From: Anaerolineae bacterium
Lineage (GTDB): Bacteria > Chloroflexota > Anaerolineae > S140-20
Reading direction: 5' to 3'
DNA: 21,327 bases
Assembly (NCBI GenBank): GCA_027021705.1
Contig: JALUTT010000179.1
Span: forward strand, 1 to 21,327
Positions 213 through 21,031 of this stretch are shown here, piece by piece (within the stretch, counting starts at the first letter, position 1; every line of letters begins with the position of its first letter). The translations under genes were made by a program, and so were the position numbers. The notes beneath the pieces were generated by a model that worked only from the letters and a program-made list of their open reading frames with translations, made no database searches and was not told the DNA's origin.

Positions 213-253
213 CTCCCAAAGCCGCTCCGGGCTTTGGGAGCGCTTTCGTTGTT
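213..253 (+). terminator. Terminator/attenuator-like hairpin
   Basis: Perfect 11-bp stem CTCCCAAAGCC (213-223) / GGCTTTGGGAG (230-240) with a 6-nt loop, followed by an imperfect T-rich tail CGCTTTCGTTGTT. Confidence 0.45.
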
Positions 254-648: not shown

Positions 649-1473
649 ATGAGAATTCTGATCCTAGAAGCGGAACAGTGGATCCAAGAGCTCACCCAAC
701 AGCAGTTTGCTCGCTTCCTGCACCACCATCAGATCTACCGAGCGAGCACCGAGCGTGAGGGCTTGATCCTTCTCCAGGCGGTCAAACCCCAGTTGGTCAT
801 CGTGGAGGACCACCCCCCCCTGATCAGCGGCTTGCGCTTTATCGAGCGGGTACGGGGCCGGGAATCCCAGATCCCCATCCTGTTGATCGCCGACGAGAAG
901 AATTACCTCCTGCTATCGCAGCGCGTTCGTGAGCTGAAGGTCCACTCCCTCATCGCACCCACGGATATGGAGCACTTCTCTCGGGCTCTCTCCCGGCTCC
1001 TTCCGCCTCCCGATCCCTTTCCGCAGGATCAGGATCCCATCGAAACGGCTCAGGAGATTCTGAACCGTCTCCGCACCGAGATTGACGCCGACCTGGTGCT
1101 CTTGATGAACAACACCGGTGAGATCTTGGCCGAGAGCGCGGTGGAATGGTGGCCCCAGAGCCGGGAGCTGGCCGTCCTGCTCTCGGCCGGCCACGCCTCG
1201 GCCACGGAGACGGCGAAGATGCTGGGCATGGCGACCCCCTTTCAGACCATCCTCTACCGTGGTGAGGGGGGCGGGATGGTCTACACAGCCCGCATCAACG
1301 ATTCCTTCCTCCTGGGCATTATCTTCGGAGAACGCACGCGGACGGGCATCGTCACCTACTTCACCAGCCGAGCCATCCCCCACCTGGCTCGCCTCCTGGA
1401 GGGGTATCAGCCCCCGCTGCCGGAGGTGGACATCACCAATGAGGCGATGAGCCTGCTCGACGACCTTTTGTGA
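649..1473 (+). CDS. Pseudo-receiver domain + Roadblock/LC7 (MglB-like) domain protein, 274 aa
   Basis: ATG at 649 follows the SD-like AGAGGAGA (633-640). The N-terminus has the receiver pattern (MRILILE...PQLVIVEDHPPLISGLRFIERVR...IPILLI) with degenerate catalytic residues. The C-terminus (ADLVLLMNNTGEILAE...LAVLLSAGHASATETAKMLG...) parallels the MglB gene at 2635. Confidence 0.8.
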   Translation: MRILILEAEQWIQELTQQQFARFLHHHQIYRASTEREGLILLQAVKPQLVIVEDHPPLISGLRFIERVRGRESQIPILLIADEKNYLLLSQRVRELKVHSLIAPTDMEHFSRALSRLLPPPDPFPQDQDPIETAQEILNRLRTEIDADLVLLMNNTGEILAESAVEWWPQSRELAVLLSAGHASATETAKMLGMATPFQTILYRGEGGGMVYTARINDSFLLGIIFGERTRTGIVTYFTSRAIPHLARLLEGYQPPLPEVDITNEAMSLLDDLL

Positions 1474-1585
1474 TGCCGCCCCCTCGCCCGTGGGACGGGA
1501 GTACGCCATCCAGGAGGCGTCCTGTCCAGAGGTATCTACGCGGCTACAGAACTGCTACCCAAGTGTTACAGCCTTACGCCGGTTT

Positions 1586-1596
1586 TGTGATAGGAT
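1586..1596 (+). promoter_or_regulatory. Possible internal extended -10 promoter
   Basis: TG at 1588-1589 followed one base later by TAGGAT (1591-1596), in the 158-nt gap and 35 nt before the next start codon. Confidence 0.35.
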
Positions 1597-1631
1597 GGGA
1601 CCGCCCTGGAAGCGAGGGGGGAGTGCATAGT

Positions 1632-2588
1632 ATGAGCGACCGAAAGCGCATTCTTATCGTGGATGATGAAGGAAGGGTTGCCTACTTCCTTCGCAAGACG
1701 CTGGAGCGGATGGACCGGCGGTTTCAGGTCGAGACGGTCCCCTCCGGCGAGGAGGCCCTGCTCCTCTTTCAAGAGGGGGCTGTGGACCTGCTGATCACCG
1801 ACCTGCGGATGCCCGGCATCAACGGGCTGGAGCTGATCGAGCGGGTCCGTCAGATCAGTCCCACGACGCCGGTGATCCTGATCACCGCCTACGGCTCCGA
1901 TGAGATCGAGGCCCGAGCGCGGCGGCTCCAGATCTACCGCTACTTGACCAAGCCCTTTGACATCAACGAGTTCACCGACGCCGTCATCCAGGCCCTCAGC
2001 GACCGGCCCATCCGGGAGCCGGGCATCCTGGTCCTGCCCGACCGCCATTTCCGGCGATTGGTGGCTGCGTTGGAGGACCTGTCGCGGCGGACCGAGGCCT
2101 TCTTCGCCCTCCTGATCAACGCGGCGGGCCAGCGCATCGCAGCCGTTGGAGATTCGTCGGGGATAGACACGGAGACGCTCAGTTCCCTGCTGGGGGGAAG
2201 CTTCGCCAGCTTCTTGACCCTGGGGGGGCTTTTCGACGACAGCGCCGGCCTCAACTTCCTGTACCGGGAGGGGCAGCAGGTGAACCTCTACGCGGTCAAC
2301 GTGGCAGAGGAGATGGTGCTGGCCCTGCTCCTGGATCGGCGCGTGAGCCGGGTCCCGGTCGGCGTCGTCTGGCTGGAGATGAAGCGTGCCGTCGAGCACC
2401 TGTTGGAAATCGTCCCCAACGGGGGGTGGGGCGAGCCGGCGGCGGCCCTGGACGAAGCCTTCTCCTCGGCCGTGAGCGAGCATCTGGACCAGGTGCTCGC
2501 GGAGCGTTCCGCTCCTCCATCCACCACCCCTCCGCTCGGCCCGGAGGTCCAAGAAGACGGAGAGACCAATCTGGTGGGGCTGAACTGA
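1632..2588 (+). CDS. Response regulator receiver + Roadblock/LC7 domain protein, 318 aa
   Basis: ATG at 1632 after GAGGGGGGAG. Canonical receiver motifs: ILIVDD, DLLITDLRMPGINGLEL (phospho-Asp), ILITAYG, YLTKPF. The C-terminal half is Roadblock-like (ALLINAAGQRIAAVGD...DTETLSSLLGGSFAS...LYAVNVAEEMVLALL). Confidence 0.9.
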   Translation: MSDRKRILIVDDEGRVAYFLRKTLERMDRRFQVETVPSGEEALLLFQEGAVDLLITDLRMPGINGLELIERVRQISPTTPVILITAYGSDEIEARARRLQIYRYLTKPFDINEFTDAVIQALSDRPIREPGILVLPDRHFRRLVAALEDLSRRTEAFFALLINAAGQRIAAVGDSSGIDTETLSSLLGGSFASFLTLGGLFDDSAGLNFLYREGQQVNLYAVNVAEEMVLALLLDRRVSRVPVGVVWLEMKRAVEHLLEIVPNGGWGEPAAALDEAFSSAVSEHLDQVLAERSAPPSTTPPLGPEVQEDGETNLVGLN

Positions 2589-2634
2589 GCCGATGTCCCC
2601 ACCGAAACCCCAACACCTCACCAGGAGACAGAAA

Positions 2635-3147
2635 ATGACAGCGACCGAGAACAAACTGTCAGGTCCACCCATAGGCTTGCTCTTCTCGCCTCAGCAGCTT
2701 CAACAGATGCAGGGATACCTGCGCGAAGTCTACTACGAAGCCGAGGCCCGATGCGTCGTCCTGGCCGACATCACCGGCCAGTTGATCGCCCAGGAGGGCA
2801 ATCCCAAGGAAGTGGACACCACCGTCCTCTCAGCCCTGGCGGCCGGCAATTTGGCCGCGACCCGAGAGATGGCTCGGCTGGTAGGGGAGCCGGCCCGCTT
2901 CAAACTGCTCCTGCACGAGGGCGATCTCCGTACCGTCTACCTCTCTGACGTGGATGACGAGCTGATCCTGGTGATCGTTTGTCCCAGCGCGACGCCCCTT
3001 GGGTTGGTCCGCCTGGTCATCCGGGAGGCCATCGCCAAGATCCAACCCATCGTTCAGGAGGCTCGCCATCGTCCTACCGCCTCCGCCCCCGGTATGGACG
3101 ACGAATTCACCGCCTTGCTCGATAGCGAACTGGAAGCATTGATCTGA
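2635..3147 (+). CDS. mglB: MglB-family Roadblock/LC7 protein (putative GAP for MglA), 170 aa
   Basis: ATG at 2635 after AGGAG (2623-2627). Motifs ARCVVLADITGQLIAQEG, DTTVLSALAAGNLAATREMARLVGE, F..LLHEG and LGLVRL match MglB. The gene lies directly upstream of mglA. Confidence 0.88.
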   Translation: MTATENKLSGPPIGLLFSPQQLQQMQGYLREVYYEAEARCVVLADITGQLIAQEGNPKEVDTTVLSALAAGNLAATREMARLVGEPARFKLLLHEGDLRTVYLSDVDDELILVIVCPSATPLGLVRLVIREAIAKIQPIVQEARHRPTASAPGMDDEFTALLDSELEALI

Positions 3148-3308
3148 ACCTCCCGATGCGACGGGCCTTTCCCCTGCCTGCGCCCCCTCATCCCGAGCCG
3201 GGCAGGCAGAACCCCGGGGAACCATCGCAGCATACGGAACGACCCAGAACACCTATGACACCTATCCGAATGCACCGGCCAGAGAGGGAGGAGTTCTAGG
3301 GGGCAACC

Positions 3309-3917
3309 ATGTTCTTCAACGCACATTTACGCGAAATCAACCTAAAGATCGTCTACTACGGACCCGCCCTAAGCGGCAAAACGACCAATCTGGAACAGCT
3401 CTACCGTCGCATTCCGGTGCGAGCCCGCAGCGAGATGGTTTCGGTCAAGACGCGAGAGGACCGGACGATCTTCTTCGACTTTATGGAGCTCTCTCTGGGA
3501 AAGATCAAGGGGCTGACGCCCCGCTTCAAGCTCTACACCGTACCCGGTCAGGTCTACTACGCCGCCACCCGCAAGCTGGTCCTGCGAGGCGTGGACGGGA
3601 TCGTCTTCGTCGCCGATTCCCAGGCCGGCCGATTGGAGGACAACGTCGCCTCGATGCAGGACCTCTGGGAGAACCTCCAGGAGATGGGGTACGATCCTTA
3701 TGGGGTTCCCCTCGTCCTCCAGTTCAACAAGCGGGACCTGCCCGACGCCCTGCCGGTCTCCCAGTTGGAGAAAGCCCTGAATCACCGGGCTTGCCCCACC
3801 TTTGAAGCCATCGCCATCCAAGGCGTTGGGGTCTCCGAAACCCTGAAGGGGATCATCAGTGCTGTGATGCAGTCAGTGTACGAACGCCTGAGGGTGGTGC
3901 CCACGCCGACCAGGTAA
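3309..3917 (+). CDS. mglA: MglA-family small Ras-like GTPase, 202 aa
   Basis: REINLKIVYYGPALSGKTTNL (G1/P-loop), DRTIFFDF (switch I with the intrinsic Arg), LYTVPGQVYY (G3 with the catalytic Gln), GVDGIVFVADSQ, NKRDL (G4), EAIA (G5). Confidence 0.96.
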   Translation: MFFNAHLREINLKIVYYGPALSGKTTNLEQLYRRIPVRARSEMVSVKTREDRTIFFDFMELSLGKIKGLTPRFKLYTVPGQVYYAATRKLVLRGVDGIVFVADSQAGRLEDNVASMQDLWENLQEMGYDPYGVPLVLQFNKRDLPDALPVSQLEKALNHRACPTFEAIAIQGVGVSETLKGIISAVMQSVYERLRVVPTPTR

Positions 3918-3923
3918 GGACCG

Positions 3924-4331
3924 ATGAACGTGCCACCGAAGCTCCAGGTCGAGATCACCGCGTTGCTGCAGGAGGTCCAACAGCAGGGCCAATTCCACCA
4001 CCTGATCCTGACCGACGACAGCGGCATGCTTGTTGCCGCCGCAGGACAGGCCGACTGGGAGGCCGAGACGCTGGCCGCGATGGTGGGTACCGTGTGGCGG
4101 TGGGTGGACCGCATCCACCAGCGGCTGGGGCTGGCCGCGTCAGACGAGGTGGCGCTGCGCGACACCCAAGGCCGGCGGGTCGTTGGGCGGACCTTCTGGG
4201 TAGGCGAGCAGCGCCTGACACTGATCCTGGTCGCGACTGTGCGCCAGCCCTACCGCCGGATCACGACCCAGGCCATCCACCGGATCCGGGACTACCTGGA
4301 ACAACGTCGGCGCCGGAGGGGGGGAGAGTAG
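3924..4331 (+). CDS. Stand-alone Roadblock/LC7 domain protein, 135 aa
   Basis: LILTDDSGMLVAAAG...AETLAAM Roadblock pattern. Starts 6 nt after the mglA stop, with AAGGA overlapping that stop codon. Basic C-terminal tail RRRRRGGE. Confidence 0.8.
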   Translation: MNVPPKLQVEITALLQEVQQQGQFHHLILTDDSGMLVAAAGQADWEAETLAAMVGTVWRWVDRIHQRLGLAASDEVALRDTQGRRVVGRTFWVGEQRLTLILVATVRQPYRRITTQAIHRIRDYLEQRRRRRGGE

Positions 4332-4362
4332 GCGCTGTGATCACACGAAGGGGGGCGAGACC

Positions 4363-5157
4363 GTGGCCGTAACAGGGAGCCTGCAGGAAATGAGTCTGCC
4401 GACGCTCATCCAAGTCCTCTGCGAGGAGCAGGGAGACGCCCAATTGACGATACGGGATCGGGAGGAGGGCGAGGAAGGCTCCCTTTTCTTCTCGCAGGGA
4501 CAGGTCGTCCACGCTCAGACGGGCACCCTGGTGGGGGAGGAGGCTGTGTACGAGCTCCTGAGTTGGGAGGAAGGCACCTTCGTCTTGGAACGCAGCATCC
4601 CCCCGCCGGAGCAGACGATCCACACGGAATGGTCGGCCCTGCTCCTGGAGGGCTTGCGTCGTCTGGACGAGCAACGGGAAAGTGCCCGCCTTGCTCCCCC
4701 CCATCCCGGGGAAGCCGTGGCGGACATTCAATGGCCGGAAGGACTTGACGAGAACCGAGACGCGAGAAAGGAGGGATCAACGATGGCGAAACGAAGTGAG
4801 CTTTTGATGCAAACCCTGGATGAGCTGCTGACCAGCTCTGCAGACATCGAAGGGGGCGCGATCGTCAGCACCGACGGCCTGATCTTGGCCGCCAACGTTC
4901 CCACGGGAGGATTGGACGAGGCCCACGTTGGTGCTGTGGCCGCCGCGATCCTGGGGCTGAGCAAGCGCAGTGTCCACCAGCTCAAGCGCGGTGACTTCAC
5001 CCAGACCCTGGTTCAGGGTAATCAGGGCAACATCATCGTGACTACCATCAACGATCGAACCCTCTTCGTGGGCATCACCTCTCAAGATGCCAACCTGGGG
5101 ATGGCCTTCCTGGAAGCCCGGGAGACTGCGCAGAAGGTAGCAGACATCCTGGGGTAG
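4363..5157 (+). CDS. DUF4388 (PATAN-like) + Roadblock/LC7 domain protein, 264 aa
   Basis: GTG start. The N-terminal pattern GSLQEMSLPTLIQ...GSLFFSQGQVVHA..G.LVGEEAVYELLSWEEGTF...LLLEGLRRLDE is typical of DUF4388. The C-terminal IEGGAIVSTDGLILAAN...VGAVAAAILGLSKR...NLGM is a classic Roadblock. Confidence 0.9.
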   Translation: MAVTGSLQEMSLPTLIQVLCEEQGDAQLTIRDREEGEEGSLFFSQGQVVHAQTGTLVGEEAVYELLSWEEGTFVLERSIPPPEQTIHTEWSALLLEGLRRLDEQRESARLAPPHPGEAVADIQWPEGLDENRDARKEGSTMAKRSELLMQTLDELLTSSADIEGGAIVSTDGLILAANVPTGGLDEAHVGAVAAAILGLSKRSVHQLKRGDFTQTLVQGNQGNIIVTTINDRTLFVGITSQDANLGMAFLEARETAQKVADILG

Positions 5158-5226
5158 CAGCACGAGCAGCGTCGAGCGCGGTTACGGTCTGACCACAGCA
5201 TCCATCTTTCCTACAGGAGGAGTGTC

Positions 5227-5703
5227 ATGGCTACTGAGGAAGAAAAGAAGCGAAATCTGGCCCGGATCAACGCAATGATCATCTATGGTTTAGAAAAAGG
5301 GTTGTGGGACCTCTTCGGTGAGTCCGCCTTGGCCGTGACGACCACGGTAGGCGAAGGCATGCTGGAGATCATGGAGAAGAATATGGGACTGGAGATCGCC
5401 GATGAGGAGCCCGAAGACGTGTTGACGGAGATCGGGCGCATCTTTATTGACGAGATCGGCATCGCCCGGGAGTTCGAGATTGTGAAGGAAGGCGACACGG
5501 TCAGCTTCCACGTGGACGGGTGTGTCTTGATGCACACAGAGAAGAGCCTGATCGCCGATGGCATCAAGCCCTTCGTCTGCCCCTACCTGAACATCGCAGC
5601 GGCGGCCATGCGGCGCCGGCTGGGTGTCAAAACCTCGGTGCAACAGTTCGACGTGGACCCAGAAACCCACCACTGCCATCTGCGGTTCGCGATGTTCAAG
5701 TGA
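5227..5703 (+). CDS. Hypothetical protein, probable V4R/H-NOX-like fold with three Cys, 158 aa
   Basis: Strong SD AGGAGG before the ATG. Helical N-terminal half, then strands with C99 (FHVDGC), C118 (VCPY, before a helix) and C150 (HCHLRF, final strand), the spacing seen in V4R-related domains. The ORF is clear; the fold call is an inference. Confidence 0.6.
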   Translation: MATEEEKKRNLARINAMIIYGLEKGLWDLFGESALAVTTTVGEGMLEIMEKNMGLEIADEEPEDVLTEIGRIFIDEIGIAREFEIVKEGDTVSFHVDGCVLMHTEKSLIADGIKPFVCPYLNIAAAAMRRRLGVKTSVQQFDVDPETHHCHLRFAMFK

Positions 5704-5885
5704 TCGGGGAGACAGGGGGAAGATAAGCGTGGGAGGGAGGAGGCTCCTGCAGGATCCTCTTCCCTCTCCCATCCCCATCCCTTCCGGGGGTTGAACGCGG
5801 TCAATCCACCGCCACGCCCTGAAGGGTCGCGCCCCCGTCCCCGGCCGTGTCCCAATGGTCCTAGACCAGCACCGGTGATCATCTG

Positions 5886-7178
5886 ATGCGAGAACCTATC
5901 TTCTTTCGGCGGGACGATACCCTCACCCTGGAGCAAGCCCGGTATTGGAAGAATTTGCTTTATCGGGTGGTGAAGATCGGCACCGAGCTGGAGGTCGCCC
6001 CACCCAAGGGGGTCAAGCGTCCCATCTTTGAGGAGGCCGTGCGGGAAGCGATGGCCCCGTCCGGCAGCCTGGAAAGTCTGGGCCGATATGGCGTGCTCAA
6101 CGTCCAGACGGAGCACTGCGGCATCGAAGTTCAGATCATCGGACGGCATCCCTACTTCTGGGCTCTGCGGGAGCAATACACCTACATCTTGGCGACGCTG
6201 GACCGGCTGGGAGGGCGGGTTCGTCCGACCTGCGGCCTTCACTTCCACATCCTGACCCCTTCCCTCAACGAACCGGTGCCGGAGATCGTCCTGGCCAACC
6301 TCTGGAACCTGACCCGCCGTTACGCACCGGAGCTGAAGTTTCTAACCAGCGGCGGGGAGAAGCGGGAAGCCCTCTGCCGTCGGCGCAACCACAACAGCCA
6401 CCTGGAGATGGTCAAGCTGACGCCGGGCACCCTCAGTATGGCCGCCATCCAGCAGCACCTGAGGGAGAGCCGGATCGTGCCTGAGCACCAGAACTTCCTG
6501 AACTTGGAACATCTGGGCTTTCCCGAGGAAGGGGGCGTTCTCCCCTTCCACCTGGAGTTCCGCTTCCCGGATATGGACCTCTCCCCCACCTCGGTCACGG
6601 CCAAGACCTTCCTGTTCCTGGCGATGGTGCTTAAGGCCGTGGACCTGAGCCGGTACGGGATCATCCACGTGGGGACGATGACCACGTGGGAGCGGAAGAA
6701 GGAAATCCTGAACCGGCTAAGCAACAACGACGGCAATCTGGCTACCAGCGATACCAGCCAGGTGACCGATGAGATGATCGAGGAGCTGCGGGTCGGCTGC
6801 CGGGAGCTCCTAGACCTGTTGGCACCCGCCTTCGACCGCTTTGAGGACAATCCGGCGCTGGAGGTCCTGCACGTGCTCGCCGAGACCCCCATCTCCCTGC
6901 TGCGGGTTAGCGGGCGCGACTGGGAGGAGATCGAACGACTGCTGGCCGCCCGCGCCGACCAGGGCACCGACCCGCTCGACGAGATTGACCACCGCTTGAT
7001 GCGCTGCATCGAGTTGCTGGAGTGGGATGGGTTCCCCGACGCCAAGGCGTGGGGATGGCGAGCCGCCTGGGAGTTTCAGTTGACGCCTCAGGAGCTCCAA
7101 CGCCGGTTGGACAAGCTGGACCGGCTGAGGGGCCTCCGATGGGACCCGCGTCTGGGAACCTATCAGTTCACTTCTTGA
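5886..7178 (+). CDS. Putative amidoligase (glutamine synthetase-like COOH-NH2 ligase fold), 430 aa
   Basis: Ordered motifs KIGTELEV (GxExE), a second acidic strand EHCGIEV, TCGLHFH (CGxHxH) and HLEFRFPD (EFR), characteristic of the Amidoligase_2/GCS2-type superfamily. The adjacent class II amidotransferase is a known partner. Confidence 0.78.
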   Translation: MREPIFFRRDDTLTLEQARYWKNLLYRVVKIGTELEVAPPKGVKRPIFEEAVREAMAPSGSLESLGRYGVLNVQTEHCGIEVQIIGRHPYFWALREQYTYILATLDRLGGRVRPTCGLHFHILTPSLNEPVPEIVLANLWNLTRRYAPELKFLTSGGEKREALCRRRNHNSHLEMVKLTPGTLSMAAIQQHLRESRIVPEHQNFLNLEHLGFPEEGGVLPFHLEFRFPDMDLSPTSVTAKTFLFLAMVLKAVDLSRYGIIHVGTMTTWERKKEILNRLSNNDGNLATSDTSQVTDEMIEELRVGCRELLDLLAPAFDRFEDNPALEVLHVLAETPISLLRVSGRDWEEIERLLAARADQGTDPLDEIDHRLMRCIELLEWDGFPDAKAWGWRAAWEFQLTPQELQRRLDKLDRLRGLRWDPRLGTYQFTS

Positions 7179-7218
7179 GGGGACCGACGCACGGGCAAGG
7201 CAGACGACAAAGCAGACG

Positions 7219-8043
7219 ATGTGCGGATTGGCTGGAGTTCTTTTAGAACCGAAGGAGCGCTCGGCAGAGACATGGGAGGCGATCCGCCGTGCCTTCGTTC
7301 AGAACCTGCTGGCCAACCAAGAGCGGGGGAAGGAGGCCTCGGGGGTCGCTCGTATCCAGCGAGACGGCTCCTGTCACCTCTACAAGTCGCCTCTGCCGGC
7401 CGAGCAGTTGGTGGCCCAACGAGCCTTCCAGAACCTGCTGGCGGGGCTCGACGCCAACACCACGGCGCTCCTGGGCCACACCCGAGCGCCGACCAAGGGG
7501 ACGCCGGCTCACAACGGGAACAACCACCCGCTCTGGGTGGGTCACGTCGTTGGCATCCACAACGGTCACGTCGAGAACGACGATGACCTCTTCGAGCGAC
7601 TGCGCTTTCAACGACGCTGGGACGTGGACAGCGAGATCATCTTCCAGATCCTGAACCACCTCCACCCCGACCTGCTGGGCGACCTCTACCCCTACGCCAT
7701 CGGGCATAGCCTACGCCTGCTGGAGGGCAAGTTCACCCTGATGGCCGTGGACCTCCGCCAGCCCTACCGCCTGATCGTTGTGCGACAGGCGAACCCTCTC
7801 AGCTTCCACTACCACGCCGCTTGGGGAGCCATCTTCTTCTCCTCCCGCTATCTCTTCCTCCGCCGGGTGTTTGGGCGTGACGTCCGCACCGAGATCCTGC
7901 GGGACGGCACGATCTACCTCTTCGACAGCCACGCCCTGAGCGTCGGACCGGTCCAACGGATCCGTATAGGGTTCGAGCGTCCTCACCTCCATCGGCCGGC
8001 CGCCTTCGTCCTCCCCAACACCCCGCCTCCCATCCCTCGGTGA
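7219..8043 (+). CDS. Class II (Ntn) glutamine amidotransferase, stand-alone, 274 aa
   Basis: N-terminal MCG (Cys nucleophile), RGKEASG, LGHTRAPT, NNHP, HNGHV, DVDSE. There is no fused sugar isomerase, PRTase or Asn-synthetase domain. Confidence 0.9.
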   Translation: MCGLAGVLLEPKERSAETWEAIRRAFVQNLLANQERGKEASGVARIQRDGSCHLYKSPLPAEQLVAQRAFQNLLAGLDANTTALLGHTRAPTKGTPAHNGNNHPLWVGHVVGIHNGHVENDDDLFERLRFQRRWDVDSEIIFQILNHLHPDLLGDLYPYAIGHSLRLLEGKFTLMAVDLRQPYRLIVVRQANPLSFHYHAAWGAIFFSSRYLFLRRVFGRDVRTEILRDGTIYLFDSHALSVGPVQRIRIGFERPHLHRPAAFVLPNTPPPIPR

Positions 8044-8067
8044 CTACCCATACCTTGGGAGCAGGGA

Positions 8068-8115
8068 GATAGCCGTCCACGAATGAGGAGGCGAGAAGTT
8101 CGTGGACGGCCTATC
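8068..8115. repeat. Inverted repeat after the amidotransferase gene
   Basis: GCCGTCCACGAA (8072-8083) / TTCGTGGACGGC (8099-8110), a perfect 12-bp stem extendable by 4 bp past one bulge, with a 15-nt loop and no U-tract. Possible 3'-end or stability hairpin of the operon. Confidence 0.6.
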
Positions 8116-8183
8116 GCAGCCCATTCCCTCGCTCACCTGGGGATAATCACCGGCCATTTCCCATAGCTGAAAACCCCAAATGC

Positions 8184-8196
8184 GGGTATAATACCC
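8184..8196 (+). promoter_or_regulatory. -10 element of the antiporter operon embedded in a palindrome
   Basis: TATAAT at 8187-8192 inside GGGTAT-A-ATACCC, 54 nt upstream of the ATG. SD AGGAGG at 8230-8235. Confidence 0.55.
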
Positions 8197-8246
8197 TTCG
8201 TGCCCTCGTCCACCTGGTGACTGCTCTCTAGGAGGTCCTTTTTTCT

Positions 8247-10148
8247 ATGGAACAACCTAATTCCTTCCTGCCCCTGCTCATCGTCGTCTCCCTCGCTTTC
8301 ATCGTGCCCTTCGTCCTCTCCCGCTTCAAACGGCTGCGTCCGCCCATCGTCGTCGGAGAGATCATCGCCGGCATCTTGGTCGGTCGTAGCGGGCTGGGCT
8401 GGGTGGCCCGCCACGATCCGGTGCTCGACCTGCTGGCGGAGTTCGGCTTCGTCTTCCTGATGTTCCTGTCCGGTATGGAGATAGACTTCTCCAACCTGGG
8501 CGCTCTGAGCAATTCCAGAAGCTCTGGTCGCTCCGATTGGGGAGATCGGCTGCGGGGACCGGTCCCCCTGGCCGGTCTGAGCTTTGGGATCACCCTCGCC
8601 TTCTCCCTGGTCGCGGGCCTCGGCCTGACCCGCCTGGGGCTGGCCCAGGACCCCTGGATGATGGCCCTCATCCTCTCCACCACCTCCCTGGGGGTCGTCG
8701 TGCCCGTCCTCAAAGAACAGGGACTGAGCAGCGGACGTTTCGGCCAGACGTTGCTGGTTGCCGCTCTGATTGCCGATTTCGTCACGATGTTCCTCATCAC
8801 CGTGGTCGTCGCCGCCCTCTCCCACGGGCTGACCTTGGACATCCTCCTGATCAGTCTGCTCTTCGTCGCCTTCCTGCTGATGTACCGCTTCGGGATGTTC
8901 TTCTTCAACCAGCTCACCGTGGTGCGGCGGGTGATGGAGGAACTGAGCCACACACCTGCCCAGATCAAGGTCCGGGCCGCCTTCACGATGATGCTGCTCT
9001 TCGTCGGGCTGGCGGAGGTCCTGGGCACGGAGATCATCCTGGGGGCCTTCCTGGCCGGCGCCATCGTCTCGCTGCTGAGCACACCGGATGACACCGATCT
9101 GATCCACCAACTGGAGGCCGTGGGGTTCGGCTTCTTCATCCCCATCTTCTTCATTATGGTGGGGGTGGACTTCAACCTGCCGGCCCTGCTCGCTTCCTCC
9201 CAGGCGCTGCTGTTGCTCCCCCTGCTGCTCCTGGCAGCCATCGCGGTGAAGCTGATCCCCGCCCTGCTGCTGCGGGTGAACTTCACTTGGCGCGAGGCTT
9301 TGGCCGGCGGCGTCTTGCTCTCGGCCCGCCTCTCCCTCATCATCGCGGCCTCGGCCATCGGCATGCGCGTCGGGGTGATCAGCGAATCGGTCAACACGGC
9401 GATCATCCTGGTCGCCATCGTCACCGTGATCGCCGCCCCTCTGCTCTTCAACCAGTTGATGCCCCGCCGTCGTCGTCAGGAGAAACGGCCCATCCTCGTG
9501 GCCGGGGCCACCTCCCTGGGCTTGCAGGTGGCCGATCAGCTGCAGGCCCACAATGAAGTGGTCGTGGTGATGGATTCGGACGAAGATCGGCTGGCTCGGG
9601 CGCGCCGGCGTGGGCTCAGGACGGTACTGACCCACCCCGATCGTGACGACCCACGCGCTGTCCCCCACTACGAGGCTGCCCGGGTGCTGGTCTGCACCTA
9701 CGCAGACACCCGGTTGAACTACCGCATCTGCCGGCTGGCCCGCACTACCTACGGACTGAACCACGTAGTCGCCTACGTCACCGACCCCAACGCCATCCCC
9801 CGCTTCGAGCAGTTGGGCGTCACCCCGATGAACGAGGCCGTAGACCGGGCTGCTTTGCTGGTCCTGCTGGCCCGTAACCCCGACGTCTACACGTTGTTGA
9901 CCCGAACCGACGACGACAAGGAGGTCAGCGAGGTGGTGGTGCGCAACCGGCAGTGCGCCGGCAAGCTCCTGAGCGAGATCGAGTTGCCGGGCGACCTGTT
10001 GGTGGTTGCGCTACGCCGCAACGGGGAACTGGTGATCCCCCACGGGGATACCCGACTGGAGTACGGCGATCGCCTGACCCTGGTGGGCTCCATTGAGTGC
10101 ATCGAGGGAGCCCGGCGTTTCCTGGCCGGTATGGAAGATAGGGCGTGA
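8247..10148 (+). CDS. cpaA: Monovalent cation:proton antiporter (CPA2) with RCK_N and RCK_C domains, CpaA/YjbQ-like, 633 aa
   Basis: About 400 aa of multi-TM region with PIVVGEIIAGILVG, FLMFLSGME, LSTTSLGVV, ILGAFLAG and FFIPIFF. Then an RCK_N domain (ILVAGATSLG...VVVMDSD) and an RCK_C domain (VVALRRNGELVIPHGDTRLEYGDRL). The symbol reflects resemblance in architecture, not proven orthology. Confidence 0.88.
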   Translation: MEQPNSFLPLLIVVSLAFIVPFVLSRFKRLRPPIVVGEIIAGILVGRSGLGWVARHDPVLDLLAEFGFVFLMFLSGMEIDFSNLGALSNSRSSGRSDWGDRLRGPVPLAGLSFGITLAFSLVAGLGLTRLGLAQDPWMMALILSTTSLGVVVPVLKEQGLSSGRFGQTLLVAALIADFVTMFLITVVVAALSHGLTLDILLISLLFVAFLLMYRFGMFFFNQLTVVRRVMEELSHTPAQIKVRAAFTMMLLFVGLAEVLGTEIILGAFLAGAIVSLLSTPDDTDLIHQLEAVGFGFFIPIFFIMVGVDFNLPALLASSQALLLLPLLLLAAIAVKLIPALLLRVNFTWREALAGGVLLSARLSLIIAASAIGMRVGVISESVNTAIILVAIVTVIAAPLLFNQLMPRRRRQEKRPILVAGATSLGLQVADQLQAHNEVVVVMDSDEDRLARARRRGLRTVLTHPDRDDPRAVPHYEAARVLVCTYADTRLNYRICRLARTTYGLNHVVAYVTDPNAIPRFEQLGVTPMNEAVDRAALLVLLARNPDVYTLLTRTDDDKEVSEVVVRNRQCAGKLLSEIELPGDLLVVALRRNGELVIPHGDTRLEYGDRLTLVGSIECIEGARRFLAGMEDRA

Positions 10149-11413
10149 TGCTGGAGGGTCTGGGCCTCTCCCTGGAGTTGAACACCCTTACCCTCATCGG
10201 GCTGATCATCACCCTCGCCTTCCTGGGGAGCAAGCTCTTCCAACGGATGGGCATCCCCCAAGTGGTGGGCTTCATTGTTATGGGCGTCGCCATCGGCCAC
10301 TCGGGCCTCAACATCGTCTCGCTGGAACGGACGGAGGAACTGCTCTTCATCAGCCAGTTGGCCCTGGGGCTGATCGGCTTCGACATGGGCGGGCACCTGC
10401 ACGTCCAGGAACTGCGCCGGTTGGGGAAGAGCATCCTCTTCATCCTGATCTTCGAGGCCATGGGCGCCTTCGTCGTTGTCGCCATCGGCACCTACCTCCT
10501 CTGCCATTCCCTTTACACCGCCTTGCTCTTCGGTGCCATCTCCTCGGCCACAGCACCGGCAGCCACCGTAGACGTGCTGGCGGAGTACGATGCCGCCGGC
10601 CCTCTCACCACCACCCTCATCGCCGTCGTCGGCCTGGACGACGCCCTATCCCTGCTGCTGTACAGCATCACCGCCGCCTTCGCCGAGTCCACGCTGGCCC
10701 ATACCGGCCCTCCCCCTCTCCTCTCCCTCTTGGAACTGCCCCTGCTGGAGATCGGGGGCTCCCTGCTGTTAGGAGCAGGGCTAGGTCTGGTTCTGGGCTT
10801 CATTATGAGTCATCTTCGGAACCGTCACGACGTGATGGCCGTTGCCATCGGGACGGTCATCCTGGGCGTGGGGCTCTCGGTTACCTTGGGCTTTTCCCTG
10901 ATCCTGACCACGATGGTGCTGGGCAGCGTGGTGGTCAACCGGGATGCGCGGAACGGCCACTGCATTCGCTACGTCGTCGAGCAGGCCGGCCCCGTGATCT
11001 ACGTCCTCTTCTTCGCCCTGGTCGGAGCCCGCTTCCGGGTGGATATGCTGCCGAGGATGGGGGTCCTGGGGATCGCCTACGTGCTCCTGCGCAGCGGGGG
11101 CAAGTTCGCCGGGGCCTGGCTGGGAGGGCGTCTGGGAGGCGCAGTGGCAGCGGTGCGCAACAACCTGGGGCTGGGGCTTCTCTCTCAGGCCGGTGTAGCC
11201 ATCGGCCTGGCCCTGGACGCAGCCGCCCGCTTCGGCCGGCACAGCCCCCAAGGGAACCAACTGGGCAACCTGATCATCAACGTGATCACCGCCACCACCT
11301 TCATCGTCCAGATCATCGGCCCCATCGCGGTCAAGCAGGCCATCACCCGCGCCGGCGAGGTGGGTGGGGCGATCGCCACGGAGGACGAGTGGATCTCGGA
11401 GGGGATCACCTAG
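10148..11413 (+). CDS. Cation:proton antiporter (Na+/H+ exchanger family), membrane domain only
   Basis: TGATG overlap with the previous stop codon. Motifs IPQVVGFIVMGVAIG, SATAPAATVDV, VVGLDDA, FFALVGA and LGLLSQAGVAIGL. Confidence 0.9.
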   Translation: MLEGLGLSLELNTLTLIGLIITLAFLGSKLFQRMGIPQVVGFIVMGVAIGHSGLNIVSLERTEELLFISQLALGLIGFDMGGHLHVQELRRLGKSILFILIFEAMGAFVVVAIGTYLLCHSLYTALLFGAISSATAPAATVDVLAEYDAAGPLTTTLIAVVGLDDALSLLLYSITAAFAESTLAHTGPPPLLSLLELPLLEIGGSLLLGAGLGLVLGFIMSHLRNRHDVMAVAIGTVILGVGLSVTLGFSLILTTMVLGSVVVNRDARNGHCIRYVVEQAGPVIYVLFFALVGARFRVDMLPRMGVLGIAYVLLRSGGKFAGAWLGGRLGGAVAAVRNNLGLGLLSQAGVAIGLALDAAARFGRHSPQGNQLGNLIINVITATTFIVQIIGPIAVKQAITRAGEVGGAIATEDEWISEGIT

Positions 11414-11428
11414 CAGGGGGAGGAAGCC

Positions 11429-11881
11429 GTGGACTGGATCACAGAGCAAGTGGCCGTCGCCGGCGGGACCATCACGCCGGAGATCTGGCCGGAACTCCGG
11501 CGGACGATGGGCATCACAGCGGTGGTCAACATGCGGGCCGAGCAGCAGGACCTCTTCGGCTACCCGCCGCCGGCCGCCTACCTCTGGTTGCCCGTCGTGG
11601 ACCACACCGACCCCGACCTGGAGCAGTTGGCCTTGGGCGCCCACTTCGTAGACACCCTGGTGCGGGCCGGGCACCGGGTGCTCATCCACTGCGGGATGGG
11701 GATCGGGCGCTCGCGGACGATGGCGGCGGCCTACCTGATCTGGACCGGCCTCTCCGTGGACGAGGCGCTGCGCCAGGTCGAGGGCACCACCCGGCCCATC
11801 TACCGCCCGGAGCGCCGGCAGGTTCTGGAAGCCTTCGCCTCGGCGCTCCCTCCCCATCGGACGGAGACCTCCGAGGGCTGA
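11429..11881 (+). CDS. Dual-specificity/tyrosine protein phosphatase family protein, 150 aa
   Basis: GTG after GGAGG. GITAVVNM, LWLPVVD (general-acid loop), VLIHCGMGIGRS (CX5R) and AAYLI. Confidence 0.92.
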   Translation: MDWITEQVAVAGGTITPEIWPELRRTMGITAVVNMRAEQQDLFGYPPPAAYLWLPVVDHTDPDLEQLALGAHFVDTLVRAGHRVLIHCGMGIGRSRTMAAAYLIWTGLSVDEALRQVEGTTRPIYRPERRQVLEAFASALPPHRTETSEG

Positions 11882-11920
11882 CCGCCCTCGGAGCGCTTTC
11901 GTGAGCTACGGCCCCAAGGG

Positions 11921-11956
11921 AAGCGCGGCGCACCATCCCGGTGCGCCGCGCTTTTT
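11921..11956 (+). terminator. Rho-independent terminator between convergent genes
   Basis: 14-bp perfect stem AAGCGCGGCGCACC (11921-11934) / GGTGCGCCGCGCTT (11940-11953) with a 5-nt loop, and TTTTT at 11952-11956. Confidence 0.85.
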
Positions 11957-11993
11957 GGGGAACCGGCAGGGATAACCCGGGCGGGGCCAGTGC

Positions 11994-14900
11994 CTATCGG
12001 TTCTTCAGCACCACCGGCAGGTAGACCTTCACCCCTCCGGTGACCACCACCTTGCCCGTGTGGCCGGCGGCGTCGGTGTAGGTGTACTCCCCCGGCGTGG
12101 TGAACCGCCGCCGGTAGCCCGTCCCCGGCTCCAGATACCCGGCATCGAAGCCCCGGGTGTCCTGGAGCGGGTCCAGCGTGCTCAGCACCCGCAGGATGGG
12201 GTTGTCCGTCCAGCGCACCACGTCGGTGATGGTGTCCGTATCCCGCACCAGGGAGACCCACTGGACGGCACTGCCCACCGAGACGGTGACGACCGCCGGG
12301 TCGGGGCCGTCGGGCGTGAGCGTCACCGTCACCGCTGCCGCGTCGGGCCAGGGGGTGTAGGGGACGTTGACGTGGACGATCTGGGTGATCACCTGGATGA
12401 CGGGGCTGCGCCAGCGCTGGTAGCCGGGGATGCCCTCCACCTCCAGGTAGTAGTAGCCCGGCGGCGTGAAGAAGGCGAAGTAGCCGGTGGTGGTGATGCC
12501 GTCGGAGTAGGTGGCGTTGGTGTTCTGGGGGTTCACCTGGCCGTAGAGGTGGGCGGGCCAGGGCACCCAGCCGCCCCACTCGGGTACCGAGACGTAGGCG
12601 GTGACCGTCACGCCGGAGATCGCTTCCACCGGTGAGAACATTCCGGTGTTGGGATCGTAGCCCCCGCCCTTGTCCACGTTGAAGACGAAGCCGTCGGGGT
12701 CAATGAGGACCTGGCCCCCGTTGATCTGCTCGCTCATCACCTGACCCGTCTGTTCGTCCACGCAGCGGCTCTTGATCTTCACGTCGTGGGCGCTGCCGGT
12801 GACGTCAACCCTGAACTGCTTCAACGACTCGATGTACTGTCCCTTGTACTCCACCCCGTCGGCTTCGATCACGATTTCCTGCCGCTGGCCTGCGGGACAG
12901 CCACAAGGGGTGATGTACACCATCGTGTCCCAGAAGCCGTAGACGCCGGGCATCTGCCAATCCTTCGTGGAGTATTCCCCGTTCTTGTCCCTGAACTTGA
13001 AGCGTCGGAATTGCCCTTTGAGTGCCCCATCCTTCACCGTGCCGACCCACTCCGAGGTCTGAGGGTTCCACTGCACGTTCCGGGAATCCAGTTTGATAAG
13101 GTCGGAACTCTTGACCTCGCTGCGGTCGGGGGGATACACCATAGCGTAGATGAACGTCACCTTATCTTGAGGCATCTGGATGGTGGCCTCGAACAGGCCG
13201 TTCTGATCCGTCTTGCCCTGGGCCAGCAATCCCAGCGATCCGCTCTTCACCTCGACGGTGAGCCCCGGCTGGGCCTGCACCTTGACCGGCACGGGGCCCG
13301 GGCAGACCTGACCCCGCTCCGGCTGAATAAACCTGGGCGCCAGCAGCGGCACCTTTACCGTGCTCGTGACCGGCCCCTCGGAGATCACGCCCAGGACCTC
13401 GTTGCCTGACTTGATCGTGCCCGTGACTTTCGCCACGTTGGCAACCTCCTGGAGCTGGAGGCTGTAGGCCGGCGCATCGCCGTTGAGCCGCCCGTAGACC
13501 TGGCTCCCCTCCACGATGGCGTAGGAGTTCTCCCAGGCATAGGTGGTAGTTATACTGGAAGCACGAAGGCTCTGCGGACTCATTGGAACAAGGAAGTAGC
13601 CCCGCCACCCCCAGTTCCACTCGGCCCGCCGCAAGGTGAAGGTGATCGGCCAGTCGTCCCGCACCCGCATCTTGTCCATCGGCGGCTTATCCGGGTGGGC
13701 GTTATCGTAGCGGCCGTAGATAATCCACTCCACCCCCAGCGTGGGGCCGTCCTTGCCGTTGGGGTTGTACCAGATGCGCCCCTTCTTGTCCAGGGTCACC
13801 CGCGCCGGGTAGGTGGTGCCGACCGCGCTGTTGTCGTTCTGCTTGCTCTGGCACTCGTACCACTCCGGCGCGGTGTCAATGCCGATGGAGATGGGATAGC
13901 CGTTGTTGTCCCACTTGGTGGCCCGCACCAGGATGCGGAGTTGGTTGCCGGAGAGCGGGTCCAAGTCCCCGACGTCCCAGTGCCACTGGCGATCGTTGGG
14001 CTTCTGTGAGGGCAAGGGGTTGGCGGAGACGAACTTGCTGTTGGCGTTCTGGAGGTTGGCGACGATCCGCGTGCCGGGGGCCTTGAAGTCACCCCGGTTG
14101 TCGTAGCTCACCACCACCTCGTACTCGTGGTAGCCCACCGGCCTGAAGATCACGTTCTTCGGGATCTGGGCCTCGATGCGCAGGTCGGGGCACTTGACGA
14201 TGGTCTCCGCCTGGGCCGTCCACTGATACGAGACCCCCTGCACCACCGCCGTGGCGGTGTTGCGGATGCGCCCGCACTCCACGCCCTCGCAGGAGACGAC
14301 CAGGACGCGGAACTCGATCATCGCCGACTGCCCGATGGGCACCACCCCCTCCCAGATCACCTTGCCGGAGGAGTCGTACCGCACGGTGCCCCCGCCCTGG
14401 AGCACCTTGGCCGAGTTGGCCACGTACTGAGTTCCCTGCGGGATGGGGTCCTCCATCGTGACGTTGGCGTCCACCTGGCCGGTGTTGGCCACGGTCACCG
14501 TGTAGACGATCTCGTTGGGCAGGCTCTGACCCGAATATGGCGTAGCCTGCGGCGTGGCCTGCTTGTTCAGGACGATGTTGACGCCGCCCAGTTGGTAGAT
14601 GGTGGTGGTCACCACATCGGTGTTGTTCACCGCCGAGTCACCGTCCGTGGAGGTGGCGATGCCCGCCGTGTTGGTGATGACGGTGCCGTCTTGCAGGCCG
14701 GAGTTGGTGGTGACAGTAATCACGTAGGTGCCGCTCGCCCCCGCACTCACCGTGCCCAGCGTCCAGGTCAGATGCCGCCCGTTGCGGGTCGGGTTGCCGT
14801 CGGCCGCCCCGAAGGTCACCTCGGCGGGCAGCACGTCGGTGAGCACCACGTTCTCGGCGTCAGCACTGCCCTGGTTGCCCCACCGCACGCTGTAGGTGAT

Positions 14901-20900: not shown

Positions 20901-21031
20901 GGGAGAGAGCTGATGCCCTCTTCCGCGAGCTTTCCTCGCAACTGCCGCCGGCCACGGTCGCTGCGTTGAAGGAACGTGGGAGGGCGAGGTCCCTTGAGGA
21001 GGTCGTCCGAGACCTAGGAGGAAGCGGGTGA
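17957..21031 (+). CDS. AfsR/SARP-family transcriptional regulator: wHTH + BTAD + STAND (NB-ARC-like) ATPase + TPR repeats, 1024 aa
   Basis: LRLALLGGL...KAQALLCYLA...LAGLLW (wHTH). AVELYRGDFLEGF...FEEWL..ERERL and LDPWREEVHRQRM (BTAD). NLPPQPTPFVGR, Walker A GPGGIGKT, Walker B LLVLDG, GMPLGIE, MHALL. Several TPRs (MNNLG, LNNLS, LQNLG, LGNLG, LSSLG). Confidence 0.95.
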   Translation: MTTELRLALLGGLQIFQGDAPVEDPPPAKAQALLCYLAITGRPHFRPALAGLLWGEKPEANALMSLRQALAALRRRFAPHLIITRQTVAFNREAPYWLDVEEFERLIDPRGTRRPDWRAIQWGWDPQDEGPQLPPARLSALRQAVELYRGDFLEGFHVREAPAFEEWLVIERERLQSYARLALHALAAHHTSQGEYAAALHYTTRLLALDPWREEVHRQRMWLLAHTGQLSAALAQYETCRRILAKDLGVEPSAETVALYERIRTARSVRFDNLPPQPTPFVGRQREMAELQRLLADPACRLLTLVGPGGIGKTRLALQIAARNRRRFLHGICFVPLASVPSDTFLVSAIAEALGFSFRGPESPKAQLLNHLREKEVLLVLDGFEHLLDGAPLLAEILQAAPAVKLLVTSQAHLRLRWECLFEVEGMQVPERVEDPDLESYDAIRLFLQIARRLHPNFSLEGEREAVVTICRLVQGMPLGIEMAAAWVRELSCAAIAREIEHNLGALSTALQDVPPRHRSLRATFDHAWTLLSDEERRAFRRLSVFRGGFRREAAERVTGVPARLLTALERRSLLRRSVSGRYEMHALLRQFAEEKLQEAPDERDRLRDRHCTYYADLLYRAEARARMGRPEETLAQVRGEIENVRASWAWAVEQGRVDAIGKALSALCRLYEVRGLFREGEAMFREARKRLQAIGGPEAEGVVGRLLVREGFFARFLGDQERAWALTMAGLEIVRRRSDRMEIALAMNNLGILAGLRGDYEEARRFFSESLAHYRAAGARSQEAVVLNNLSITERQVGAYEAARRFGQESLEISRAIGARRAEARALQNLGLIAYCRKDYNEAKRLHRESLTILREEGDRWGEALALGNLGEAARHLGEHAEAKRCHEESLALRREIGDRGGIAIALSSLGSVALALDRPREAKQYFRQALQIALELSSLPLALDILVEFSEVLAREGEIEKALELLALPLAHPATEAWVRERADALFRELSSQLPPATVAALKERGRARSLEEVVRDLGGSG

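Follow-up and report, generated by a model that had tools for sequence, protein, structure and literature searches.

Positions 1-21,327 of contig JALUTT010000179.1 of an Anaerolineae bacterium (assembly GCA_027021705.1), a stretch referred to in its whole length as the window, carry nine open reading frames (ORFs), named g1 to g9, in positions 547/649-8043. All of them lie on the + strand, and the intergenic distances range from a 4-nt overlap to 182 nt. The first six encode receiver (REC), Roadblock and PATAN proteins and the small GTPase MglA, and the last three encode a protein with a predicted Bet3/V4R fold (g7), a predicted carboxylate-amine ligase (g8) and a putative glutaminase of the glutamine amidotransferase (GATase) type (g9). 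When the cluster was compared with related loci, g7, the ligase and the GATase together with PATAN/Roadblock proteins formed its constant core, and MglA/MglB was an elaboration of the Chloroflexota. The features of the cluster are as follows.

649..1473 (+): g1, degenerate REC domain and Roadblock/MglB-like domain (Pfam, NCBIfam)
1470..2588 (+): g2, canonical REC domain and Roadblock domain (Pfam)
2593..3147 (+): g3, MglB-like Roadblock protein, directly 5′ of mglA (Pfam, NCBIfam)
3309..3917 (+): g4, MglA, Ras-like small GTPase (phmmer against PDB)
3924..4331 (+): g5, short Roadblock-domain protein (orthologue profile against PDB)
4363..5157 (+): g6, PATAN (DUF4388) and Roadblock domains (Pfam)
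5227..5703 (+): g7, 158-aa protein with a predicted Bet3/V4R/H-NOX fold (AlphaFold2 model)
5729..5771 (+): GC-rich hairpin in the g7-ligase spacer, without a U tract (folding)
5886..7178 (+): g8, 430-aa predicted ATP-dependent carboxylate-amine ligase of the glutamine-synthetase fold, without a Pfam model (AlphaFold2 model)
7219..8043 (+): g9, stand-alone class II (N-terminal nucleophile, Ntn) glutaminase domain of the GATase type (Pfam, PDB)

Products of the nine genes

Six of the nine products (g1, g2, g3, g4, g6, and g9) were identified by sequence searches of Pfam, NCBIfam, and PDB. The initial annotation of this DNA had listed nine co-oriented genes with these domains, and the list was confirmed by the searches together with AlphaFold2 (AF2) models. 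Its count of five Roadblock and two receiver-type domains was also right, the g1 receiver and the g5 Roadblock domain being marginal on single-sequence scores. The ORF of g1 is open from 547, and its likely start is the ATG at 649, which lies just 5′ of the REC domain, as had been proposed. The Response_reg match of g1 was weak (Pfam expect value (E) 1.1e-4, 22.7 bits vs. a cut-off of 30.2), its Robl_LC7 match had E 1.1e-4 (22.3 bits vs. a cut-off of 23), and its residues 164-308 matched the NCBIfam MglB model with E 1.7e-12. In Pfam, g2 matched Response_reg (E 4e-27) and Robl_LC7 (E 2.3e-6), and a REC-Roadblock gene was found at the equivalent position in related loci. The product of g3 matched Robl_LC7 (E 1.3e-10) and the Thermus-type MglB model of NCBIfam (E 1.9e-18, 67 bits, which is under the curated cut-off of 200), and that of g6 matched DUF4388 (PF14332; E 5.4e-25, 88.2 bits vs. 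a cut-off of 25) and Robl_LC7 (E 5.8e-15). The Roadblock domains of g2, g3, and g6 exceeded the Pfam cut-off for Robl_LC7. For g5 alone, Robl_LC7 reached just E 0.041; a profile of 25 g5 orthologues matched the solved Roadblock/LC7 proteins 9jue (E 1.6e-4) and 7f8f (E 2.5e-4).

The product of g4 matched the solved MglA proteins of Myxococcus (6hjh, E 1.5e-66) and Thermus (3t12, E 7.5e-62) over residues 2-188 of 202. Its translation contains GPALSGKT, TVPGQ, and NKRD, which we take to be the P-loop, the TxxGQ motif that replaces DxxGQ, and the NKxD motif of MglA. A cognate MglB of the Roadblock type is expected next to MglA, and g3 lies directly upstream of g4.

The AF2 model of g7 had a predicted local distance difference test (pLDDT) score of 91.5, and it matched the Bet3/V4R/H-NOX fold over its whole length in Foldseek (E 1.2e-4). 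By sequence, g7 had no match in Pfam at E ≤ 10 and none in NCBIfam or PDB, and its family profile retrieved nothing from PDB at E ≤ 1. None of 35 members of the g7 family matched Pfam V4R (PF02830), even at E ≤ 1, and the term V4R-like is therefore correct for the fold level only. At that level the earlier fold call was borne out, as were those of a glutamine-synthetase-fold ligase for g8 and a class II GATase for g9. PHROGs gave no match for g7, the ligase or four relatives. The ESM Atlas leads for g7 (RdxA_C, MJ0207, and ATC_hydrolase clusters) were set aside as weak matches or families outside the Pfam set.

The g7 of the window has three Cys residues (C99, C118, and C150); C99 and C118 are near-invariant, and the third is replaced in many orthologues. 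In 35 g7 sequences, K7, E56, E60, E68, R71, D75, and E76 were invariant, as was an acidic GLE...E loop. Moreover, the N-terminus reads M-A-T/S-(D/E/M)-x-x-K in 78 of 78 orthologues with freely varying synonymous codons, which indicates that the constraint acts on the protein N-terminus. The N-terminus and the acidic loop are thus under strong constraint at the protein level. The C-termini varied widely among the 78 orthologues, and weaker g7 paralogues without a ligase aligned only from residue 15-18 onward.

The AF2 model of g8, built with 25 homologues, had a pLDDT of 85.9 and a glutamine-synthetase fold over the catalytic core. Its top Foldseek matches were YbdK (E 2.4e-6) and glutamine synthetases, and ESM Atlas independently placed g8 near the Amidoligase_2 and GCS2 clusters with a template modelling (TM) score of about 0.5. 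The residues E34, E36, H119, H121, E224, and R226 were invariant in 25 ligase sequences and may be the Glu, His, and Arg motifs by which the superfamily binds metal and phosphate. The equivalent E.E, H.H, and H.E.R motifs are invariant in phage relatives. No Pfam model, including PF12224, PF14395, and PF04107, matched g8 at E ≤ 10, no NCBIfam model matched it, and phmmer and family-profile searches of PDB gave nothing meaningful. One of 32 distant representatives of the family matched Amidoligase_2 with E 4.5e-4, below the cut-off. By its model, g8 is a predicted carboxylate-amine ligase of the glutamine-synthetase fold that lies outside every Pfam family. The family is small: a search of 1.84 billion proteins at E ≤ 1e-3 gave 218 representative clusters. 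A Klebsiella fimbrial-modification enzyme from the amidoligase literature is an ATP-grasp enzyme and irrelevant to g8. The complex prediction of the ligase with g7 scored 0.06 vs. a mark of 0.32 and was counted neither for nor against a contact.

The product of g9 matched GATase_6 in Pfam with E 4.3e-14 (53.1 bits vs. a cut-off of 27). It begins MCGLAG, with Cys directly after the initiator Met, and it aligned with the GlmS glutaminase domain 1xff (E 2.9e-11) at the HTR..T.G, HNG, and D.SE motifs. In 65 sequences (that of the window and 64 orthologues), M1, C2, G3, R36, R89, N115, G116, and D137 were at least 95% conserved. The glutaminase domain of g9 is therefore of class II, and both its Cys nucleophile and its glutamine-binding residues are intact. 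Among NCBIfam models, GlmS gave E 5.5e-16, PurF 2.5e-8, and EgtC 2.8e-4.

Gene neighborhood in related loci and in the window

Relatives of the ligase were sought in one genome per species; 117 were confirmed and the best 80 loci were kept. The nine proteins of the window were placed on these loci by tblastn and phmmer, the counts take loci with enough flank, and the taxon labels derive from metagenome bins. In 68 of 70 loci the ligase was preceded within 2 kb by a g7 gene on the same strand; a GATase gene followed within 2 kb in 58 of 69 and was missing from the other 11. A g6-like PATAN/Roadblock gene was present at most 4 kb upstream in 49 of 57 loci (tblastn; at least 3.5 kb of upstream flank), and some loci without it do carry Roadblock or REC-PATAN genes by Pfam. 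MglA was present anywhere in the flanks of 32 of 44 loci, comprising 31 of 34 in the Chloroflexota and 1 of 10 in other phyla; the loci outside the Chloroflexota keep REC/PATAN/Roadblock genes in its place. The trio of g7, ligase, and GATase with PATAN/Roadblock (often REC) proteins occurs under at least six phylum labels, with a ligase identity of 46-70% across phyla. The adjacency seen in the window was thus kept in the neighborhood comparison, across phyla for g7 and the GATase and in the Chloroflexota for MglA. The two loci without g7 were L024 and the palindromic assembly L062. In the latter, the ligase and GATase form a perfect head-to-head inverted duplication (7909-12102), which is most likely an assembly artefact that explains the missing g7.

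The arrangement of the genes was informative as well. In nine loci (L033, L043, L047, L048, L053, L059, L061, L065, and L084) MglB-MglA lies downstream of the ligase/GATase, so that the enzyme genes are embedded between the PATAN/V4R-like genes and MglB-MglA. Outside the Chloroflexota the cluster can be as small as in L087, which holds only four genes (REC-PATAN-Roadblock, g7, ligase, and GATase) and is bounded by unrelated genes on the opposite strand; L088 has REC-PATAN, Roadblock, g7, ligase, and GATase genes, and L075 and L079 are similar variants. The more complete clusters of the Chloroflexota also encode a HisKA protein, an OmpR-type regulator, another REC protein, and a large hybrid kinase with PAS/GAF domains. 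The initial annotation had tied the enzyme pair to the GTPase switch. Its functional link to signaling genes stood (68/70 for g7, 58/69 for the GATase, and 5/41 genomes of the class), and the part that did not stand is the choice of partner, since MglA is not constant (1/10 outside the Chloroflexota). The pair is better seen as part of a V4R-like/PATAN/Roadblock module with MglA/MglB added.

Three loci showed further variants around the GTPase. L047 (Anaerolineae) has an MglB-MglA set on each side of its g6-g7-ligase-GATase block (7501-8593 and 12192-13844). In L022, from a cyanobacterium-labelled bin, the trio faces a divergent operon (the whole at 5719-9033, -) of protoglobin (8485-9033, -), Roadblock, a non-MglA GTPase (ATP_bind_1/Roc-type), PATAN-winged helix-turn-helix, and AIM24 genes, where a different GTPase may replace MglA. 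In L069, an Acidobacteriota-labelled locus without MglA, a ParA/MinD-type ATPase gene (12166-12972) directly follows the GATase; according to the accessible part of a 2026 bioRxiv preprint (10.64898/2026.10.19.760177), ParA can displace MglA in MglB-centered systems.

The distribution of the ligase was narrow. Among 41 genomes of the window's class it was found in five, and MglA (E ≤ 1e-20) and strong g7 matches were found in the same five; three further g7 matches were to weak paralogues and did not cover the N-terminal 15-18 residues. When 151 genomes were sampled evenly from the phylum, the ligase occurred in the window's genome only (0 of 150 others) and MglA in 35 (34 of 150 others). These results indicated that most MglA systems are without the ligase arm, whereas the arm, where present in the Chloroflexota, is nearly always accompanied by MglA. 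A quickly built MglA tree, with 45 proteins linked to a ligase and 20 unlinked ones, needed 2 label changes vs. a shuffle mean of 17.3, with 0 of 500 shuffles as low, and it placed 17 of the 20 unlinked proteins in one well-supported clade. Relatedness inflates such clustering and the MglA of the window is weakly placed, and the tree hence allows a soft conclusion only.

The spacer between g7 and the ligase is 182 nt in the window and contains the GC-rich hairpin (about 5729-5771, -35.2 kcal/mol) that the initial annotation had placed at 5706-5787. Its stability was modestly above that of shuffled sequences (z -1.93; 9 of 200 shuffled versions were equally stable). An intrinsic terminator was rejected: the hairpin is without a U tract, the terminator scan made no call, and its position and length are not conserved; it could be a non-canonical terminator. 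Across 68 loci the spacer measured -14 to 1662 nt (median 96.5; 60 nt or less in 18 of 68), and this variable length indicated that the hairpin is a local, non-conserved feature.

In other loci the same slot accommodates additional genes, none of which is carried by the window. Five loci have a gamma carbonic anhydrase of the Cam type there (L045:9229-9852, L048:1817-2494, L054:5115-5741, L067:1743-2363, and L068:1810-2427). The one in L054 matched solved Cam with E 1e-84; against NCBIfam carb_anhyd the gamma class scored E 2.8e-92 to 2.1e-100, and the match begins at model position 39-43, which indicates that these enzymes are without a signal peptide. A beta-class enzyme (Pfam Pro_CA, E 9e-37 to 1.8e-41) occupies the slot in three more loci (L069:about 9400-9952, L072:5372-5998, and L074:6764-7390). 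In total, a cytoplasmic carbonic anhydrase was found between g7 and the ligase in 8 of 68 loci under at least four phylum labels. The use of two unrelated classes in one slot indicated that CO2/bicarbonate matters to the module, as substrate or signal. Furthermore, a protoglobin-like gene sits in the slot in four loci, in all of which g7 is duplicated (L016:9528-10004, L025:9549-10004, L050:5472-5900, and L073:7097-7690), and L083 has a hemerythrin gene (4498-5028) after the ligase instead of the GATase. The protoglobin and hemerythrin genes, including the protoglobin of L022, hint at a gas or redox input. Single receiver domains occupied the slot in two loci.

The loci without a GATase bear on the role of g9. 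No g9 orthologue was found elsewhere in three of three genomes searched from such loci, which gave just weak matches to GlmS-sized proteins of 618-662 aa. This indicates that the ligase can work without g9, as ammonia-dependent forms of amidotransferases work without a glutaminase. A role of g9 as ammonia donor would fit both its GlmS/PurF-like scores and the occurrence of the ligase without it.

The distant, longer relatives of the ligase are phage proteins with a Cys-rich insert. One or two GATase_6 genes lay within about 3 kb downstream in nine of nine phage loci with such relatives, and tblastn of these loci detected no g7, Roadblock or MglA. The ligase-GATase pairing is therefore ancestral, and the link to signaling is specific to the bacterial subfamily. 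In three annotated phage loci, the GATase_6 genes stand beside PF14395 COOH-NH2_lig genes and a helicase, and the GATase domains are fused to further domains. A ResIII/DEAD helicase beside the long relatives carries an intein with a LAGLIDADG domain in two phage loci (L099:1303-3804 and L102:1396-3834).

Outside the cluster, Rfam matched no family over the whole window. A terminator-like hairpin with a T-rich tail lies 5′ of g1 at 213-240 (+) and could end a gene cut by the contig start; a 156-aa ORF that spans it (116-586) is without a family match. On the 3′ side, 8247-10148 and 10145-11413 (+) encode two Na+/H+ exchangers (Kef-type), the first with TrkA-N/TrkA-C, and these genes were not conserved beside the ligase in other loci. 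Next come a 1803-aa protein, probably a large surface protein, in which beta-helix/NosD, proprotein-convertase P domain, DUF11, and DUF7927 repeats occur (11994-17405, -), and a 1024-aa BTAD-AAA/NB-ARC-TPR regulator of a type common in Actinomycetota and Chloroflexota (17957-21031, +).

Proposed mechanism and alternative explanations

In our reading the nine genes form a single system: a small-GTPase switch would be fed by a phosphorelay and coupled to an enzymatic module, in which g8 and g9 would form a glutamine-dependent amidoligase. We regard this reading as having about an even chance of being right. What is observed are the modelled folds, motifs of presumed catalytic role that are kept intact, and a gene linkage that is conserved; the mechanism beyond them we infer. 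The ligase would activate a carboxylate with ATP as an acyl-phosphate, which is the general mechanism of the fold, and g9 would free ammonia from glutamine so that the acyl-phosphate becomes an amide. The carboxylate might belong to a small molecule that g7 holds, or it might be one of the acidic residues in the g7 protein. The Roadblock/PATAN proteins would sense whether g7 is liganded or modified, and in the Chloroflexota they would set the nucleotide state or location of MglA, with the REC domains feeding in histidine-kinase input. The output might be a decision on polarity or surface motility, as MglA and PATAN proteins control elsewhere. The initial annotation had offered three chemistries: amidation of the signaling proteins, synthesis of a ligand for the V4R-like protein, or amidation of envelope polymers. 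No envelope gene was conserved in the cluster across the examined loci, and thus nothing favors the third.

Several observations weigh against this mechanism. MglA is absent from 9 of 10 loci with wide flanks outside the Chloroflexota, and control of MglA therefore cannot be the universal output of the module; the bin-derived taxon labels on which this count depends may be wrong. The ligase is without a sequence match to any characterized enzyme that could point to its class of carboxylate. No ligase-related fused protein of more than 753 aa and no g7-related one of more than 280 aa was found, so fusions that would prove physical coupling are missing, which is weak evidence. In addition, the insertions of carbonic anhydrase and protoglobin genes point to chemistry or input that the mechanism leaves unexplained. 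Lastly, a stand-alone GATase-like protein of class II can act as a gamma-glutamyl amidohydrolase, as EgtC does, and the conserved residues of g9 do not separate such an enzyme from an ammonia donor.

In one alternative, g8 and g9 would act in opposite directions. The ligase would attach glutamate, a different amino acid or some small carboxylate to an amine of a signaling protein, with the invariant N-terminal Ala2 or Lys7 of g7 as the best candidate sites, and g9 would remove the mark. Pairs of this kind exist: PafA/Dop attach and remove Pup, and EgtA/EgtC make and cleave a gamma-glutamyl amide. The weak match of g9 to EgtC (E 2.8e-4), the g7 N-terminus, which is kept in 78/78 orthologues and lies outside the alignment of the ligase-less paralogues (residue 15-18 onward), and the 11/69 loci without g9, from which an eraser could plausibly have been lost, agree with it. 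However, g9 scored far better against amidotransferase glutaminase domains than against EgtC, and the phage GATase domains are fused to further domains, the typical amidotransferase arrangement. Moreover, no modification of g7 is known, the C-termini of g7 are not conserved, and the cluster has no conserved small disordered protein resembling Pup. A writer and eraser of this kind is the main alternative, but an unlikely one in our estimation. A Pup-like tag as such was rejected: g7, the sole small conserved non-Roadblock protein, has variable C-termini, and there is no tag gene among the nine.

The slot genes raise a further alternative, which we consider quite improbable, that the ligase activates bicarbonate or carbamate with ammonia from g9 and that the module senses or fixes CO2. 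Carbamoyl-phosphate synthetase and PurK use such carboxylates on a different fold, and dedicated carbonic anhydrases stand beside bicarbonate-consuming enzymes, as cynT beside cynS. The placement of a gamma (five loci) or a beta (three loci) carbonic anhydrase between g7 and the ligase, i.e., of unrelated enzymes with the same activity, implies that the activity itself is wanted there. However, just 8/68 loci have one, the window has none, and we know of no glutamine-synthetase-fold enzyme that uses bicarbonate. A carbonic anhydrase could also serve sensing or pH control, and the protoglobin-like genes (four loci) and the hemerythrin gene (one locus) in comparable positions would fit an interchangeable sensory input equally. 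As cheap hypotheses for the stimulus of the system, the carbonic anhydrase and protoglobin partners suggest CO2/bicarbonate and O2.

We give little credence to a more speculative reading. The ligase and the glutaminase would write a covalent mark on g7, at its N-terminal Ala-Thr-Glu-x-x-Lys or its acidic loop, and marked g7 with the Roadblock/PATAN proteins would form a bacterial platform resembling TRAPP, by which the nucleotide state of MglA is set. Where a carbonic anhydrase is clustered, the mark could be a CO2-derived carbamate on a g7 amine, fixed by the ligase as a stable carbamoyl group, and the system would be a covalent CO2 sensor. If true, a small GTPase would here be switched by a mark that an enzyme writes at the expense of ATP and glutamine.

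It is very improbable that the cluster is an anti-phage or other conflict system, with an enzymatic effector under the control of a GTPase/Roadblock sensor. Its patchy spread (ligase in 0/150 other genomes of the phylum sample and in 4/40 relatives in the class) with high conservation across phyla (46-70% identity) would suit such a system, and beyond its own family the ligase has its nearest relatives among phage proteins. The accessible part of the 2026 preprint also predicts V4R-linked and MglA/MglB-linked systems to be immune (10.64898/2026.10.19.760177). However, eight of the nine proteins matched no PADLOC 2.0 model, and g2 gave a weak receiver-type hit (E 5.7e-5). The cluster is without a nuclease, TIR, protease or pore-forming effector, its conserved neighbors are two-component kinases and regulators, and housekeeping genes, not defence islands, flank the examined loci. 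That a ligase/GATase pair of ordinary metabolism adjoins the MglA cluster by chance, as the 182-nt hairpin spacer of the window and the isolate-genome locus L024 (a ligase without g7, GATase or signaling genes) might suggest, is scarcely credible against the adjacency kept across phyla (68/70 for g7 and 58/69 for the GATase), the pair embedded between signaling genes in nine loci, the ligase and MglA in the same 5/41 genomes, and the lack of conserved metabolic pathway genes nearby.

Comparison with known systems

The literature search found no paper on this system, and searches for MglA with amidotransferase gave only unrelated papers. The earlier claim that no MglAB system with an enzymatic arm has been described thus held within the literature searched. 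In the survey of MglA proteins by Wuichet and Sogaard-Andersen (PMC4316618), in the part accessible, PATAN is the sole occasional neighbor named for MglA of Groups 1 and 5, and the main text is without the word "amidotransferase". The cluster is like the MglA/MglB switch of Myxococcus xanthus and Thermus thermophilus in its MglA-type GTPase, the MglB-like gene directly upstream, the PATAN protein, and the receiver domains (as in RomR). It differs from that switch in its five Roadblock domains, its Bet3/V4R-fold protein, and its ligase and glutaminase. Bacterial small-GTPase switches are known to run on GTPase-activating proteins, exchange factors, and phosphorelays, and a ligase with a glutaminase would add a chemical input or output that is undescribed for MglA.

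Gene pairs of a COOH-NH2 ligase/Amidoligase_2 protein and a class II GATase were reportedly described in phages and bacteria by Iyer, Abhiman, Burroughs, and Aravind in 2009 (Mol Biosyst). The window agrees with such pairs in that a glutamine-synthetase-fold ligase adjoins a stand-alone class II GATase. In contrast to them, its ligase has no PF12224, PF14395 or PF04107 match and no Cys-rich insert, and it is tied to signaling proteins. From PafA/Dop the pair differs as well, since the partner is an Ntn glutaminase and not a paralogue of the ligase, and no Pup-like tag or proteasome genes are present in the window. The families of the ligase and of the Bet3-like protein, which have no Pfam models and a very narrow, patchy distribution, are well-defined targets for function assignment.

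Proteins of the Bet3/V4R fold are kin to TRAPP and, in the accessible parts of two sources, occur beside Roadblock proteins and GTPases in Asgard archaea (PMC10933270, PMC3791482). In Asgard strain MK-D1, small-GTPase genes are generally not in operons with Roadblock, longin or TRAPPC3 genes, as far as the accessible part of Tran et al. (2024; PMC10933270) goes. Like the eukaryotic TRAPP and Asgard sets, the cluster combines a protein of the Bet3 fold with proteins of the Roadblock/longin type and a GTPase of the Ras superfamily. In contrast to these sets, its parts lie in one putative bacterial operon and have no detectable sequence similarity to them, TRAPP is without a ligase arm, and a role in nucleotide exchange is putative here. 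An operon of a Bet3-fold protein, Roadblock proteins, and a Ras-like GTPase would be a compact bacterial counterpart of the TRAPP parts list, biochemically easier than the archaeal and eukaryotic versions.

The 2026 bioRxiv preprint on ParA-like NTPases (10.64898/2026.10.19.760177) proposes, in its accessible part, that the product of an asparaginase-family enzyme binds a V4R domain. As far as that part describes them, the V4R-asparaginase systems likewise couple a ligand-binding domain of the V4R fold to an enzyme of amide metabolism. Their enzyme, however, is a hydrolase fused or linked to immune effectors, whereas the window has a ligase and a glutaminase with PATAN, Roadblock, and MglA proteins. 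Taken together, the cluster combines two known kinds of system, the MglA/Roadblock/PATAN switch and the amidoligase-GATase pair, with two protein families for which there are no models.

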